This document shows positions 43,479 to 46,638 of a stretch of DNA of 64,000 bases, one piece after another. The notes under the pieces are model-generated. The model did not search any database, had not been told where the DNA came from, and saw only the letters and a list, made by a program, of their open reading frames with translations. Where the stretch lies: assembly GCA_963801355.1 (NCBI GenBank), contig CAWDEM010000004.1, forward strand, positions 160,001 to 224,000, written 5' to 3'. The translations under genes and the position numbers were made by a program. Source of the stretch: Ignavibacteriota bacterium (GTDB taxonomy: Bacteria > Bacteroidota > Ignavibacteria > UBA10030 > UBA6906). The first letter of the stretch is position 1, and every line of letters begins with the position of its first letter.

Positions 43479-45107
43479 ATGAGTGAATTCATCGTTACGG
43501 CGCGCAAATGGCGCCCTATGAAATTCGAAGATGTCGTGGGGCAACGACACGTCATCGTGACACTTCGCAACGCCCTGTCGACGGGACGCATTGCCCATGC
43601 GTATATCTTCAGCGGACCCCGGGGCGTCGGCAAGACCACGACTGCGCGCCTGCTGGCGAAAGCGGTGAATTGCCTTTCACCGGTTGATCTGAACCCCGAC
43701 AACGCATGCGAAATCTGCACGGAGATCACCGAAGGGCGTTCGTTCGACGTGCAGGAAATTGACGGGGCTTCGAATCGCAGCGTCGAAGATATACGCAATC
43801 TCCGCGAGGCGGTGCGCTATGCGCCGGTCAAGGGCCGCTACAAAGTGTATATCATCGACGAAGTGCATATGCTGACGAAGGAGGCGTTCAACGCGCTTCT
43901 GAAGACTCTGGAAGAACCCCCGCCCCACATCCTGTTCATCTTTGCCACCACAGAGCTCCAAAAGGTCCCGGCCACAATCCTCTCGCGCTGCCAGCGCTTT
44001 GACTTCCGGCGCATTCCGACAGGTGAGATTCACCGGAACCTTGCAGGTATCGCCCGGCACGAAGACCTCGCGGTGGAGGACGAAGCATTGCTCCTGATCG
44101 CACGGCGCGCTGACGGCTCGCTTCGCGATGCCCAGAGCCTGTTTGACCAGGTGATCGCCCTCTGCGGCCGCACGGTAACCCATGCGGCAATGCTGGATGC
44201 GCTCAATATCGTCGACGAGGACTATTTCTTCCGCGTGACATCGCTGATGGGGACACAGGATCCTGCAGGAGGTCTCGCCCTCGTGGAGGACCTGATGAGT
44301 CACGGGTACGACCTCCGTGAATTTCTGGTCGGCCTGATTGAACATTTCCGGAATCTCCTCGTGGCCAAGGCCACGGGCAAACTCGAGCTGATTGATGCCT
44401 CCGACGTCATGCGGAAACGGTACGGGGAGGTCGCAGCCCAATTCTCCATCGGCGACCTTCTGCGCGCACAGCGCCATGTCTGCGCGACCGAAATGAGCCT
44501 TTCCCGCACCGCCCAGGCCCGCTTCCGGCTTGAAGCAGATATCGTTCAGCTCGTGACCATGCCGCGGTCGGTGGACCTTACCATGCTAATCGAAGGGCTC
44601 GACGAGCTAAAAAAAAAACTGACCGGTGAACGGCAGCCTTCCCCACCCACTTCCACTTCCACTGAATCACCGGCGCACAGAATTCCCCTTGCGCCGCCTG
44701 TCTCTGCACCTCCGCGTGCGGTACCACCTCCGGTGTCTCCCGACAAACGTCCGGTTTCTTCCGCGGCGGTGAATGAAAACGAAGTCCGATCGCGGTGGAC
44801 GGAATTCGTCGCCGAGGTATCACGCGCCAAGATCTCCGTCGGCACGGTGCTGGGATCGACGACTTTCCTGGGTGTTCAGGAGGGTATCCTGCGGATCGGC
44901 TGTGTTGATGAGTTCCAGGTGGCTTCCGTGGAGCGCAATCGTGAAGTGCTGGCCGGAATTTTTCATGCGGTCTTTCACGTGCACCTGCGCGTTGCCGGAG
45001 AACGGATGGTATCGGCGGAGCCGACAGCGCTTTCCCCGGCTAAGGCTGATGATGAACATCCCATCATCAAAGCCCTCAAACGTGAGCTCGGTGCGGAGCC
45101 GATCTGA
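43479..45107 (+). CDS. dnaX: DNA polymerase III subunit tau/gamma
   Basis: ARKWRP, GPRGVGKTT, Zn-binding cysteines, IIDEVHML, SRC; Pro-rich linker and C-terminal domain; internal A10 run. Confidence 0.97.
   Translation: MSEFIVTARKWRPMKFEDVVGQRHVIVTLRNALSTGRIAHAYIFSGPRGVGKTTTARLLAKAVNCLSPVDLNPDNACEICTEITEGRSFDVQEIDGASNRSVEDIRNLREAVRYAPVKGRYKVYIIDEVHMLTKEAFNALLKTLEEPPPHILFIFATTELQKVPATILSRCQRFDFRRIPTGEIHRNLAGIARHEDLAVEDEALLLIARRADGSLRDAQSLFDQVIALCGRTVTHAAMLDALNIVDEDYFFRVTSLMGTQDPAGGLALVEDLMSHGYDLREFLVGLIEHFRNLLVAKATGKLELIDASDVMRKRYGEVAAQFSIGDLLRAQRHVCATEMSLSRTAQARFRLEADIVQLVTMPRSVDLTMLIEGLDELKKKLTGERQPSPPTSTSTESPAHRIPLAPPVSAPPRAVPPPVSPDKRPVSSAAVNENEVRSRWTEFVAEVSRAKISVGTVLGSTTFLGVQEGILRIGCVDEFQVASVERNREVLAGIFHAVFHVHLRVAGERMVSAEPTALSPAKADDEHPIIKALKRELGAEPI
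44607..44628 (+). other. Candidate slippage/frameshift site in dnaX
   Basis: CTA AAA AAA AAA CTG ACC GGT GA; 10 A at 44609-44618; TGA in both alternative frames. Confidence 0.75.
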
Positions 45108-45157
45108 AGCACCCCTGTTGCATCCTGGTTTGAAGCACCCCCCGTCTCATCCCGGTT
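45105..45157. repeat. Imperfect 26/27-bp direct duplication starting at the dnaX stop codon
   Basis: TGAAGCACCCCTGTTGCATCCTGGTT / TGAAGCACCCCCCGTCTCATCCCGGTT. Confidence 0.65.
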
Positions 45158-45225
45158 TATTTTTTTCTCCCCTCGAAAAAGTCCCGCTCCCGGTGTAATA
45201 ACAGTTGAGCAGTGTTATCGTTCTT

Positions 45226-45553
45226 TTCGGCGCAGACCTCTACGCCTGGTCGGTTGCGACAGCGGAATAGCCGCCCGGTCGGGTCGACGACGGCGCAGAG
45301 GATGTCGTGTTTCCCGTTCCCCCGGGATCCGTTTTTCGTGGCACCCTCGTGCAGTATCCCCCGTCAGCGGTCGTTGCGGGCGAGCGCGGGCCGGGGATCA
45401 GGGCGCGGAACGAGGGGACCGGGATGCGGATGAACGGTGTGCAGCGGGAAACACCTCCGCGCCGAATGTGTACCGGGACAGCCGGAGGCACAACGCCTGA
45501 ACCGCGGCGGGTTCGGGGTGCTGGAGCCCCCGGCTCCCGGCGCTTGATTCTTT
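45226..45553 (+). ncRNA. Unidentified highly structured RNA candidate
   Basis: Nested complementary segments forming a three-way junction (45226-45466) plus a further long hairpin (45473-45540); no credible ORF; family not recognised. Confidence 0.55.
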
Positions 45554-45572
45554 AGCGGGTTTTTGGGATACT
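45544..45572 (+). promoter_or_regulatory. Putative promoter of the PorV-family gene
   Basis: TTGATT-N17-GATACT with TGn extension. Confidence 0.5.
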
Positions 45573-45612
45573 GTCTCTGGAAGCTGGCGTGATGACAAGC
45601 AGCGGGAGACAT

Positions 45613-46638
45613 ATGAGATACGGGATGCTGGTCGTGCTCCTCGTTCTCGCGCAATGGGCGGCGGCGGGGACAGGTGTGGCAAAGTATGCAGGTGAGTTCA
45701 TCTCGCTGGGTGTCGGAGGCCGTGCGCTCGGATTGGGTGGAGCGTATGTGGCGCTCGGGAACGACGTCACCGCCGGCTATTGGAATCCCGCCGGCCTCGC
45801 CCGGATTTCCTACCCCCAAATCACATTGATGCACGACGAACGCTTCGGCAGTCTGGTGAACTATGACTACGGCGCCGTGGCGTTCCCCTTCGGAGCACAA
45901 TCCAGCATCGGTGTCAGCCTGTTGCGTCTCGGGGTGGATGACATCCCGGACACGCGCAATGCCGGTGTGGACATCAACGGCAATCTTACCTACGATCCCT
46001 CTCAGTTCAGCCGGGTCGATCCCAACCGTGTCATGTACTTCAATGCGGCTGACTGGGCGCTGTATGTGTCGTACGCCCGTGCGTATTCGGAGGATTTTTC
46101 GTACGGTGCAAATGTGAAACTGATCCGCCGCGAGCTGGGCGATCACGGCGCCACGGGTATCGGCGTCGACATCGGCGTGTGGTACACGCCTTTTGAGAAC
46201 CTGCTCCTTGGTGCGAACTTCCAGGATGTGACGACAACGTTCCTTGCGTGGGATACCGGAACCAACGAACTGATTTCGCCGACGCTGAAAGTCGGTTCGG
46301 CCTATCTCATCGAGGCCTTCGGTGGCCGTTTTGCACCTGCGATGGATTTTGACATCCGTTTTGAAAACCGCCGGACGGCGTCGCTGGCGCACCTGGGACC
46401 TGTGAGTGTTGACCTCCACACGGGGATGGAGTACCAGTTCAAAGACTTGATCGCTCTGCGTGTGGGGTACAGCGACATCAAACAACTTACGCTGGGTGCG
46501 GGTGTGCATCTCCCCAAGCTGAACATCGACTACTCATTCATGAGATTCGATCAGGCCGATAACATGGATACCCACCGTATATCCATGACGTTCACGCTGG
46601 AATCAGAGGAATTCCAGAGGGTCCCCGACGCCGAGTAG
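45613..46638 (+). CDS. PorV/PorQ-family (FadL-like) outer membrane protein
   Basis: Signal peptide; FISLGVGGRALGLGGA...YWNPAGL; alternating beta strands; LRVGY and THRIS near the C-terminus. Confidence 0.8.
   Translation: MRYGMLVVLLVLAQWAAAGTGVAKYAGEFISLGVGGRALGLGGAYVALGNDVTAGYWNPAGLARISYPQITLMHDERFGSLVNYDYGAVAFPFGAQSSIGVSLLRLGVDDIPDTRNAGVDINGNLTYDPSQFSRVDPNRVMYFNAADWALYVSYARAYSEDFSYGANVKLIRRELGDHGATGIGVDIGVWYTPFENLLLGANFQDVTTTFLAWDTGTNELISPTLKVGSAYLIEAFGGRFAPAMDFDIRFENRRTASLAHLGPVSVDLHTGMEYQFKDLIALRVGYSDIKQLTLGAGVHLPKLNIDYSFMRFDQADNMDTHRISMTFTLESEEFQRVPDAE

Follow-up and report, generated by a model that had tools for sequence, protein, structure and literature searches.

The window, by which we mean the whole stretch of 64,000 nucleotides that was analysed, contains a gap after dnaX that was interpreted in an earlier note, made from the sequence alone, as an unrecognised structured RNA of about 320 nucleotides. 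This locus raises the question of whether there is such an RNA, which part of it forms the conserved unit, and how it might act. Profile matches confirmed that the flanking genes are indeed dnaX and a gene for a PorV-like protein. Our analysis points to a candidate non-coding structured RNA that appears to be real, is an orphan with respect to known families, and seems confined to one genus of uncultivated Bacteroidota. This element follows dnaX on the + strand and measures about 180 to 340 bases, depending on the species. The main case for its function comes from comparative data, namely conservation above the neutral level, pairing that is kept through substitutions, and strand asymmetry.

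Predicted structure and folding

Every stem that had been drawn by manual pairing was found at its position in the sequence, and the closing stem, arm 1, the rod and the 3' hairpin all reappear in the minimum-energy fold (Table 1); the separate 3' hairpin was confirmed at 45473-45540 in both the sequence and the fold. The proposal that these parts form one molecule of about 320 nt with three arms did not hold up, as the conserved unit is the 175-nt rod, and arm 1 is missing in 4 of the 7 distinct sequences. The base of the rod is made up of a closing helix, CGGCGC/GCGCCG, and an invariant helix, GUGUUUCCCG/CGGGAAACAC. Its middle is variable yet paired, and its apex is conserved. The apex holds a terminal hairpin, GUCAGCGGUCG-UUGCGGG-CGAGCGC, and GAUCAGGGCGCGGAACGAGGG on the 3' side.

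Table 1. Features of the dnaX-PorV interval, in positions of the window
Feature	Position	Strand	Basis
dnaX (DNA polymerase III gamma/tau), upstream neighbour	43479..45107	+	Pfam and NCBIfam
Spacer without significant structure or terminator	45108..45225	+	z -0.63; 60/200 shuffles as good
Closing stem, TTCGGCGC / GCGCCGAA	45226-33 / 45459-66	+	minimum-energy fold; 5' strand only in species with arm 1
Arm 1, lineage-variable hairpin	45237..45301	+	alignment; z -2.59
Arm 1 closing pairs, CCTCTACGCC / GGCGCAGAGG	45237-46 / 45292-301	+	read in sequence
Conserved core (175-nt rod)	45291..45466	+	CM R1, alifold, pairing counts, z -3.52
Rod helix, GTGTTTCCCG / CGGGAAACAC	45307-16 / 45445-54	+	read in sequence
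Near-invariant rod apex	45344..45417	+	identity to relatives versus dnaX four-fold sites
GC-rich hairpin, then U-rich UUGAUUCUUU	45470..45553 (stem 45470-45543)	+	-45.5 kcal/mol, z -3.23, 1/200
PorV-like promoter-like block: TTGATT, 17-nt spacer, GATACT (GATAAT in relatives)	45544..45572	+	genus conservation
PorV/PorQ-family outer-membrane protein gene	45589..46638	+	NF033709, 128.9 bits (cut-off 90)

Arm 1 (63 nt) is flanked by a 9-nt direct repeat, CGGCGCAGA, at 45228-36 and 45291-99. Using G000 for the source genome, G001 to G004 for the other genomes of its genus, and numbers beginning with L for other loci, we find arm 1 in G000, G002 and G003 and not in G001, G004, L148 or L151. A small hairpin replaces arm 1 in a sister clade.

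The folding z-scores of the element are moderate. On the + strand, positions 45226-45553 have a folding energy of -174.4 kcal/mol, compared with a mean of -157.4 (sd 5.6) for shuffled sequences (z -3.04), and 1 of 100 dinucleotide shuffles folded as well. The rod alone (45290-45468) reaches z -3.52, with none of 200 dinucleotide shuffles as good, and arm 1 was equalled by 1 of 200 shuffles. Folding energy, which had been suggested as a check on the element, is lower than in nearly all shuffles on the + strand, but the minus strand of the whole stretch scores even better (z -3.98). Because the minus strand also scores well, the z-scores alone give neither the strand nor a function.

Distribution of the element

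The element occurs in a single copy in the source genome, according to BLAST searches of that genome that included blastn-short. It is present in all 5 genomes of genus g1 (G000-G004) and in 4 metagenome contigs (L148, L150, L151 and L152), and at each of these 9 loci it lies after dnaX. BLAST detected it in 4 of the 4 other genomes of the genus, and a covariance model, CM R1, found exactly one match of 151-189 bits in each of the five. Among 68 genomes of the family, CM R1 gave 5 matches, all in genus g1, and did not find the element in the 63 others; among 151 genomes of the order, only G000 and G003 matched, and none of the 149 others did. These family and order runs used strict filters, by which 18-40 candidates were scored per genome, so that weak homologues may be missed. 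With filters off, the best score at the dnaX loci of 8 genomes from other genera was 14.3 bits (E 0.12). Short BLAST matches of 26-54 nt (E 7e-4 to 8e-3) were also considered in G010, G017 and G028, but none was confirmed by the CM; those in G010 and G017 lie on contigs other than the one carrying dnaX.

A search with an 18-base pattern among genome contigs gave at least 118 stretches. Among the 80 matches listed, only one is real (L105, a G002 contig), and the remainder of those listed were rejected as chance matches, including a recurring Nocardia sequence. The metagenome pattern search gave 9 stretches, of which 4 are full-length (146.8-183.2 bits) and all situated between dnaX and the PorV-like gene; the other 5 we regard as chance occurrences in unrelated, coding-like sequence. 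Two pattern scans of viral contigs yielded 12 loci, none of them real. Among the papers listed in a literature search, none describes such an element, and two 2026 bioRxiv catalogues of prokaryotic intergenic elements might include the motif.

Conservation of sequence and pairing

We compared parts of the RNA to the four-fold sites of dnaX, which served as a proxy for neutral evolution (Table 2). From this comparison, the element appears to be kept by selection.

Table 2. Identity to the reference sequence (G000) in the RNA and at the neutral proxy
Sites	G002	G001 / L148 / L151
dnaX four-fold sites	69%	49-50%
RNA apex	97%	84-89%
RNA base helices	94%	90-94%
RNA middle	87%	45-55%

Alignment of 5 sequences using alifold gave 63 pairs, 12 of them compensatory, and alignment of the 7 distinct sequences gave 53 pairs, 5 of them compensatory, as well as 8 cells with double changes. 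Over these 7 sequences, 96.5% of 371 cells are paired, versus 35-47% when the partners are slid. Neither the paired share nor the number of double-change cells was reached in any of 500 shuffles, and the covariation score was reached in 1 of 500. The number of pairs changed on both sides was no better than in shuffles (60 of 500 reach the observed value), and neither was the number of further pair types (411 of 500). The invariant helices (29 of the 53 pairs) are uninformative on structure. In the middle of the rod (helix 3), 85.7% of cells are still paired while the sequence drifts near the neutral rate. In arm 1, all 24 pairs are kept in 3 sequences, with 8 one-sided G-U/G-C changes and 1 compensatory change. 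Covariation had been named in the earlier note as a further check; what it gives is kept pairing and some compensatory pairs, but the signal is modest, because no more than 7 distinct sequences, all from one genus, are available, and 2 of the 5 covariation and pairing measures are not above shuffles.

The strand is better resolved by comparing sequences. The consensus fold has -70.5 kcal/mol on the + strand and -45.7 on the minus strand, and for each of the 7 sequences the + strand folds 14-27 kcal/mol better. G-U pairs, whose bias toward the plus strand had been remarked upon previously, account for 39 of the 371 cells and would be A-C mismatches on the opposite strand.

No conserved reading frame was found when we looked for one across species in the element. 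Variable columns are distributed 31/26/25 over the three codon phases, an ATG is lost in G002 and G003, and single-base indels in L148 and G003 shift the invariant apex into different frames. A long frame starts in G000 with GTG, behind an SD-like AGAGGA; we rejected a coding reading of it, as it is not preserved from species to species. A level of conservation beyond the neutral one, kept pairing, strand asymmetry and the lack of a coding frame are generic marks of functional ncRNAs, and each was found here.

Comparison with known RNA families

Rfam 15 has no match at the gathering score anywhere in the window. At E<=10, there are 3 matches in 45050-45650, all eukaryotic or viral miRNA or lncRNA noise, and at E<=1 the loci of four relatives show 7 matches to miRNA families, none of them on the element. 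No known aptamer or riboswitch family in Rfam lies on it. The RNA is therefore as unrecognised by Rfam as had been presumed. It had also been argued that the element is not SRP RNA, RNase P RNA or tmRNA, which is consistent with the presence of all three elsewhere in the genome with scores above the cut-off (C8:391572, 66.2 bits; C8:2426070, 244.7 bits; and C8:511867, 184.2 bits, respectively).

We considered other classes of RNA by way of their partners. A gene for Ro/Rsr, with its TROVE domain, usually adjoins a bacterial Y RNA; G000, whose genome is 100% complete, has no Ro/TROVE (Rsr) match, and we rejected this class. A CsrA sponge of the CsrB/RsmZ type was rejected because the architecture is one long rod, rather than many short hairpins with GGA loops. 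The only CsrA gene lies in a motA-motB-fliW-csrA cluster, i.e., it is of the flagellar type that is paired with FliW; in B. subtilis, CsrA of this type is antagonised by the FliW protein. A blastn-short search of the genome for complementary stretches, self excluded, found none longer than 17 nt (E 0.083).

CpxQ and SroC are bacterial sRNAs that derive from 3' UTRs and depend on Hfq. The element resembles such 3' UTR-derived or embedded sRNAs in that it directly follows a coding gene, with which it probably shares a terminator. However, it is much larger and far more structured, it possibly has its own promoter, and no Hfq gene was found in the genome. The element also resembles the orphan structured RNA motifs catalogued as candidates in Rfam, which are likewise defined by conservation, covariation and genomic position and have a narrow range; in contrast to these, the element is absent from Rfam 15 and is represented by 7 distinct sequences from one genus.

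Proposed explanation

Our preferred explanation, to which as a whole we assign a probability of roughly 0.6, is a selected non-coding RNA of the + strand with a rod as its core, optional arms, a terminator, a distribution confined to one genus, and an apex used for docking. The RNA would be read in the same direction as dnaX, and its functional core would be the rod at 45291-45466. The conserved closing helix would clamp the ends of the rod, the middle would be a freely evolving spacer that is always paired, and the apex of about 75 nt is nearly invariant. Arm 1 and the small hairpin of the sister clade would be optional decorations, and the hairpin at 45470-45543 would terminate the transcript immediately upstream of the PorV-like promoter. 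The element would have arisen within, or be restricted to, a single genus of Bacteroidota from soil and sediment, by insertion into an otherwise short spacer between dnaX and the PorV-like gene. The RNA itself could have a promoter of its own (at about 45173-45201), or it could be the 3' tail of a lon-dnaX transcript.

As to the mode of action, we infer a stable RNA whose apex and base helix might form a sequence-specific docking site, most probably for a protein, with the rod serving as a rigid spacer. It is important to emphasize that the transcript ends, the promoter and the partner are all inferred, and that no test so far supports any partner, target or mechanism.

A more ambitious version, which we consider doubtful, is that the rod is an RNA gene of recent birth: a foldback insertion in the dnaX-PorV spacer of a single genus would have been domesticated into a new class of stable RNA, regulatory or protein-docking, with the invariant apex of 75 nt as a specific binding or catalytic module. 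Such a class would be unrelated to 6S, SRP or Y RNA or to any Rfam family, and would be dispensable for the rest of the family.

If transcribed, the element would constitute a new RNA family for a poorly studied, uncultivated branch of the Bacteroidota. It would also provide a clear instance of a structured RNA that is young and restricted to one genus, with parts that evolve at very different rates. Its optional arms, apparently gained and lost by short direct-repeat events, would make it a case for RNA gene birth and modular remodelling. We regard its importance as moderate, and it touches no long-standing open question.

Transcription, and the element as a possible part of the dnaX mRNA

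The most serious alternative, although we find it rather unlikely, is that the rod is a cis-acting domain in the 3' UTR of the lon-dnaX mRNA. The rod would then block 3'-to-5' exonucleases or direct processing of the RNase III type, and so set the stability of the dnaX mRNA, and a free RNA, if any, would arise by processing. Several aspects of the locus agree with this idea. A consensus scan of 44900-45800 found no promoter, and no terminator between dnaX and the element; from the dnaX stop to the element, there is also no significant structure (Table 1). The sole terminator-like hairpin, at 45470-45543, occupies the place where other genera have the dnaX terminator, directly before the PorV promoter. 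The rod is linked to dnaX in all 9 loci, and in G003 it comes directly after dnaX.

Against this, the spacer has a promoter-like block consisting of TCGAAA (45173-78), a 17-nt spacer and TAATAA (45196-201), the latter preceded by TG. We propose this block as a candidate promoter of the element. A similar site, TTGATT-17-TACAAT, precedes tmRNA in this genome, and the block is kept in 6 of the 7 distinct sequences (G000, G001, G002, G004, L148 and L151); the exception is G003, where no such block stands upstream of the rod. Moreover, structure would be enough for a mere stabiliser, which leaves the high identity of the apex (84-97%, against 50-69% at neutral sites) unexplained. Finally, 63 other genomes of the family have dnaX without the rod.

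Some support for transcription, which is weak, comes from a single fragment. Of the 24 sequencing runs listed, one is an RNA run, and 19 DNA runs contain parts of the stretch. The RNA run, a metatranscriptome, contains one adapter-flanked fragment of 142 nt (45268-45409) that lies wholly inside the element. Nothing was seen from the flanking 460 nt, and the uncovered parts are no evidence either way. The fragment was taken from Logan contigs, which show no strand or ends, and it could reflect DNA carry-over.

The element as a possible leader of the PorV-like gene

The earlier note had preferred a stand-alone ncRNA over a leader. We agree in rejecting the leader, as detailed below, but the stand-alone transcript is less secure, given the lack of a terminator after dnaX and a promoter-like block that the scan misses and G003 lacks.

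A leader would be a long attenuator of the PorV-like gene, in which the fold of the rod or a ligand decides between read-through and a stop at the hairpin at 45470-45543. The order of rod, terminator-like hairpin and gene is what such a mechanism needs. In addition, alternative pairings are conceivable, since CGGCGC occurs three times (45228, 45291 and 45538) and GCGCCG, its complement, once (45459); however, those that we drew make the terminator longer and do not disrupt it. The element matches no riboswitch family.

The position of the promoter is more decisive. The PorV-like gene had been thought to have its own promoter, and a promoter-like block was indeed located between the hairpin and the gene, downstream of the element (Table 1). 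Upstream of the PorV-like gene, a block of the type TTGA[CT]T...GAT is present in each of the 12 spacers that we read from other genera, which lack the element, although a strict promoter scan misses the block in G000. Because this promoter, which is shared across the family, is downstream of the element, we conclude that the element is not a leader, and we consider that reading very unlikely. Based on an SD sequence (GGGAGA), a signal peptide and the alignment, the true start of the gene is probably the ATG at 45613.

The G003 locus also contradicts a leader, in that a 2-kb cassette of three genes separates the rod from the hairpin, the promoter and the gene. The 3' hairpin is kept in G000, G001, G002, G004, L148 and L151, and in G003 it is found 2 kb downstream, after the inserted cassette. 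As it stays there with the PorV promoter, apart from the rod, its earlier assignment to the same unit as the rod had to be abandoned. The hairpin together with its U-rich tail overlaps the -35 of the next promoter and is probably a terminator shared by dnaX and the RNA. Our terminator scan, which covers simple stems only, does not list it.

The element as a possible relic of a mobile element

The hairpin could in principle represent the inverted-repeat ends of a foldback (MITE-like) element or another insertion, of which only a functionless relic is left. We judge this highly improbable. The element was inserted into a spacer whose length is about 50-300 nt in 19 of the 20 syntenic loci from other genera, and its two ends are imperfect inverted repeats of 20-26 nt. 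In two other genera (L179 and L181), unrelated structured inserts are likewise present in the spacer that follows dnaX, and the direct repeat around arm 1 suggests an insertion as well. This repeat brackets only arm 1, and we saw no direct duplication flanking the whole element as a target-site duplication. MITEs and foldback elements share with our element the intergenic insertion and a single long hairpin formed by inverted-repeat ends. However, MITE and REP sequences exist as multiple dispersed copies, whereas the element is present once per genome and none of the 12 viral-contig loci is real. A relic is also difficult to reconcile with purifying selection, under which the apex and base change at a much lower rate than neutral sites and the middle drifts yet stays paired, or with G-U pairs, which point to a constraint on one RNA strand and not on DNA. 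A mobile origin followed by domestication may nonetheless apply.

The element as a possible second 6S-type RNA

The earlier note had kept open a divergent 6S RNA, which in the present case would be a second, highly divergent RNA polymerase-binding RNA like 6S-2 of Bacillus or Ms1. Like 6S RNA (RF00013) and Ms1, the element is a GC-rich, single-copy rod of about 180 nt with clamped, paired ends that is independent of its neighbour's function, and by Rfam alone the 6S slot is open, as RF00013 finds no 6S in the whole genome at E<=1. We now consider this possibility remote, because the genome has a 6S-like RNA at another locus, and no central bubble is conserved in the rod. The consensus folds and the minimum-energy fold show a near-continuous imperfect helix in place of a large bubble; the 9-sequence consensus does show an unpaired stretch of 9 x 12, most of which pairs in single sequences, for G001 and G003 by our own reading. 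There is no 6S match at E<=10 in 45050-45650. CM R1 shows no similarity to the 6S-like RNAs, with a best score of 10 bits (E 0.4) elsewhere in their loci. A 12-nt identity with the 6S-like RNA (GCGCGGAACGAG) was rejected, as it lies in a part that differs from genus to genus, and neither nhmmer nor the CM supports it. The element is also confined to one genus and has no RF00013 match, while 6S is broadly conserved.

In 6 of 41 genomes, RF00013 picks up the 6S-like RNA of the family with sub-threshold scores of 35-41 bits, and at E<=0.01 none of the 5 genomes of genus g1 matches that model. The homologue in the source genome, at G000:C8:893370-893613, matches the family RNA in nhmmer with E 7.8e-50, has a rod fold with z -5.2, and ends in a U-run.

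Structure and anatomy of the element

The 500-nt gap between dnaX and the PorV-like gene holds all of the stems that the earlier note had listed, every one of them at the position claimed for it. Moreover, when 45226-45553 (+) is folded to minimum energy, the closing stem, arm 1 and the long rod all reappear, as does the 3' hairpin that stands apart from them. In a comparison with dinucleotide shuffles, a check that the note had proposed, this stretch reaches -174.4 kcal/mol, whereas the shuffles average -157.4 (z -3.04), and 1 in 100 of them folded equally well. Its parts were also scored individually: the rod (45290-45468) has a z of -3.52, with 0 of 200 shuffles as good, while the 3' hairpin (z -3.23) and arm 1 (z -2.59) were each equalled by 1 of 200. 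Significant structure was not found in the spacer at 45108-45225 (z -0.63). Over its full length, the minus strand folds well too (z -3.98), and therefore folding of a single sequence shows only that pairing is above chance.

We redefine the conserved unit as a rod with optional modules (see table). Arm 1 is present in the genome under study (G000) and in two others of its genus (G002 and G003), and is absent from G001, G004 and the metagenome contigs L148 and L151. In these four, an extra insert of ~55 nt, which includes a short hairpin, instead separates the rod from the terminator hairpin. Where arm 1 is present, the closing stem is kept by a duplicated CGGCGC. Peripheral stems typically come and go as modules in this way. 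In the clade that lacks arm 1, there is exactly one copy of the repeat CGGCGCAGA, as would be expected for loss or gain by short-repeat recombination.

Features of the locus and of related loci in the same genome (C8, contig of G000; other positions are in the window)
Feature	Position	Strand	Remarks
dnaX	43479-45107		upstream neighbour of the element
Candidate upstream promoter block	45173-45201		TCGAAA, 17 nt, TAATAA with a preceding TG
Arm 1	45237-45301	+	63 nt; bounded by a 9-nt direct repeat, CGGCGCAGA, at 45228-45236 and 45291-45299
Rod	45291-45466	+	conserved unit, 175 nt
Rod closing helix			CGGCGC/GCGCCG
Rod invariant helix			10 bp; GUGUUUCCCG/CGGGAAACAC
Rod middle			variable
Rod apex	45344-45417		~75 nt; nearly invariant
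3' hairpin	45470-45543		GC-rich
PorV/PorQ-family gene	45589-46638		NF033709, 128.9 bits vs cut-off 90
6S-like RNA	C8:893370-893613	-	locus L190:268-516, ~245 nt
motA-motB-fliW-csrA cluster	C8:2760300-2764300		locus L203

Distribution and genomic context

The element is single-copy in its own genome, and BLAST located it in each of the genus's four other genomes, with identities of 74-92%. Using R1, a covariance model of the rod, under strict filters, we detected it in 5 of 68 genomes of the family, all from this genus (g1), and not in the 63 genomes from 28 other genera; under such filters, absence means that it was not found in those searched. The two matches among 151 genomes of the order, with the same filters, are the two g1 members sampled. 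With filters off, R1 found nothing in the dnaX neighbourhoods of eight genomes of other genera (best E 0.12). Among the matches listed in a pattern scan of species genomes, 1 of 80 loci is real, a G002 contig. Four of nine metagenome matches carry the element, the other five being chance matches in unrelated sequence, and none of 12 viral loci does. The rod is a new genus-restricted RNA family.

In all nine loci that hold it, the element lies 3' of dnaX. The PorV-like gene follows dnaX in 24 of 30 family loci, including 20 of the 26 outside the genus; of the six loci without this order, one stops at the edge of its contig. The PorV-like gene starts 436-482 nt past the dnaX stop within the genus and ~50-300 nt past it in 19 of 20 loci outside (~510 nt in one). 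All 12 of the other-genus spacers that we read contain a promoter-like block upstream of the PorV-like gene, consisting of TTGA[CT]T and then a GAT-type -10 (GAT[TA][TA]T), which corresponds to 45544-45572. On this comparative evidence, the element was inserted past the dnaX stop and ahead of a PorV promoter that was already there. A leader of the PorV-like gene, which the earlier note had already considered the less likely option, is ruled out by this placement, since the element lies 5' of a block that is common to genera without it.

In G003, a 2-kb cassette (L005:1780-3240, L011:1-1660) separates the rod, which stays with dnaX, from the 3' hairpin, which stays with the promoter. Its products, by our reading of the translations, are a MauE/DoxX-like membrane protein, a Cys-rich secreted peptide of 71 aa and a propeller-like protein of 375 aa. 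Ahead of the 3' hairpin, this genome also carries the 3' end of the rod a second time, as a short and incomplete copy.

Several other observations concern this region. Directly before the PorV-like start codon, four loci (L166, L167, L168 and L178) have what looks like an attenuator, namely a small hairpin (GTCCGGACAGC...GTCCGGC) with a T-run. Long, strongly structured inserts unrelated to the element occupy the first 260-510 nt after dnaX in L179 (genus g38) and L181 (genus g7). This spacer looks like a hot spot of structured insertion. In G001, a hairpin at L003:212-302, ~1.2 kb away from the element in the direction of the PorV-like gene, is hit on either strand by several models of miRNA precursors, with scores of 29-40 bits that stay below gathering score; it is probably a long palindrome. 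For the PorV-like gene itself, the ATG at 45613, with the SD GGGAGA and a signal peptide (MRYGMLVV...), is a likelier start than the ORF list's GTG at 45589, ahead of which only ~8 nt would remain with the predicted PorV promoter.

Selection, covariation and strand

As a neutral yardstick, we used the four-fold degenerate sites of dnaX (see table). The middle of the RNA evolves at approximately the neutral rate, but pairing persists in 85.7% of its cells (helix 3).

Identity to G000 of dnaX four-fold sites and of parts of the RNA
Region	G002	G001/L148/L151
dnaX four-fold sites	69%	49-50%
RNA apex	97%	84-89%
RNA base helices	94%	90-94%
RNA middle	87%	45-55%

Covariation, which the earlier note had proposed to look for among relatives, is real but modest. 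Compensatory changes occur in 12 of 63 pairs with five sequences and in 5 of 53 pairs (8 cells) with seven distinct sequences. Overall, 96.5% of 371 cells are paired, and shifting the partners by 1-3 columns lowers this to 35-47%. Neither the observed paired share nor the number of double-change cells was reached by any of 500 shuffles, and the covariation score was reached by one. However, the count of double-change pairs and that of further pair types do not stand out, as 60 and 411 of the 500 shuffles, respectively, reach them. In arm 1, all 24 pairs are kept in three sequences, with eight one-sided G-U/G-C changes and one compensatory change.

The consensus fold reaches -70.5 kcal/mol on the plus strand versus -45.7 on the minus strand, and all seven sequences fold 14-27 kcal/mol better on the plus strand. 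By count, 39 of the 371 cells are G-U, i.e., mismatches on the opposite strand. A protein gene is rejected: variable columns number 31/26/25 in the three codon phases, G002 and G003 have lost the ATG, and single-base indels shift the invariant apex into different frames in L148 and G003.

Relation to known RNAs

No Rfam 15 family matches the 64-kb window at gathering score or the homologous stretch in four relatives, and a search of 45050-45650 at E<=10 returned only three miRNA/lncRNA noise matches (best E 1.7). The description of the element as an unrecognised structured RNA is supported. SRP RNA, RNase P RNA and tmRNA, which the note had set aside, are each found elsewhere in the genome above their cut-offs.

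The note had left room for a divergent 6S RNA. The 6S model (RF00013) has no match in the genome at E<=1, and gives sub-threshold RNAs of ~240 nt in 6 of 41 family genomes (34.9-40.8 bits versus a cut-off of 46.4). These RNAs belong to other genera of the family. An nhmmer profile built from four such RNAs identified a clear homologue in G000 (E 7.8e-50), and therefore a 6S-like RNA exists elsewhere in this genome. It has a rod fold that ends in a U-run (z -5.17) and is probably the divergent 6S RNA of this lineage. R1 detects no similarity to the family's 6S-like RNAs; its best score, 10 bits (E 0.4), falls elsewhere in those loci. Both results speak against the element being 6S RNA.

Transcription and possible function

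An invariant apex and base joined by a spacer that is free to change but stays paired suggest a protein-binding stable RNA. We infer that the apex and base would offer a surface for sequence-specific docking, with the rod as its rigid support. The main rival explanation is that the element is a cis-acting domain of the dnaX 3' UTR. Neither a terminator nor a stable structure was found between dnaX and the element, so read-through from dnaX is likely. The 3' hairpin and the UUGAUUCUUU that follows it are a probable common terminator, although a simple terminator scan did not list it. The candidate upstream promoter block is kept in 6 of 7 distinct sequences, G003 being without it, and is similar to the TTGATT-17-TACAAT site that precedes tmRNA in this genome; a consensus promoter scan did not call it. 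The sole hint of expression is an adapter-flanked 142-nt fragment of 45268-45409 with two mismatches in one metatranscriptome run, which might be DNA carry-over and comes from contigs that give neither strand nor level; nothing else of the 601 nt compared with that run is covered.

Against a base-pairing regulator, we found no complementary stretch of more than 17 nt to the element in its own genome, and no Hfq gene in G000. Against a Y RNA, a search of this genome found no TROVE/Ro gene. A CsrA sponge is disfavoured by the misfit architecture and by the location of the sole csrA in a motA-motB-fliW-csrA cluster; the organism has a flagellar-type CsrA with FliW.
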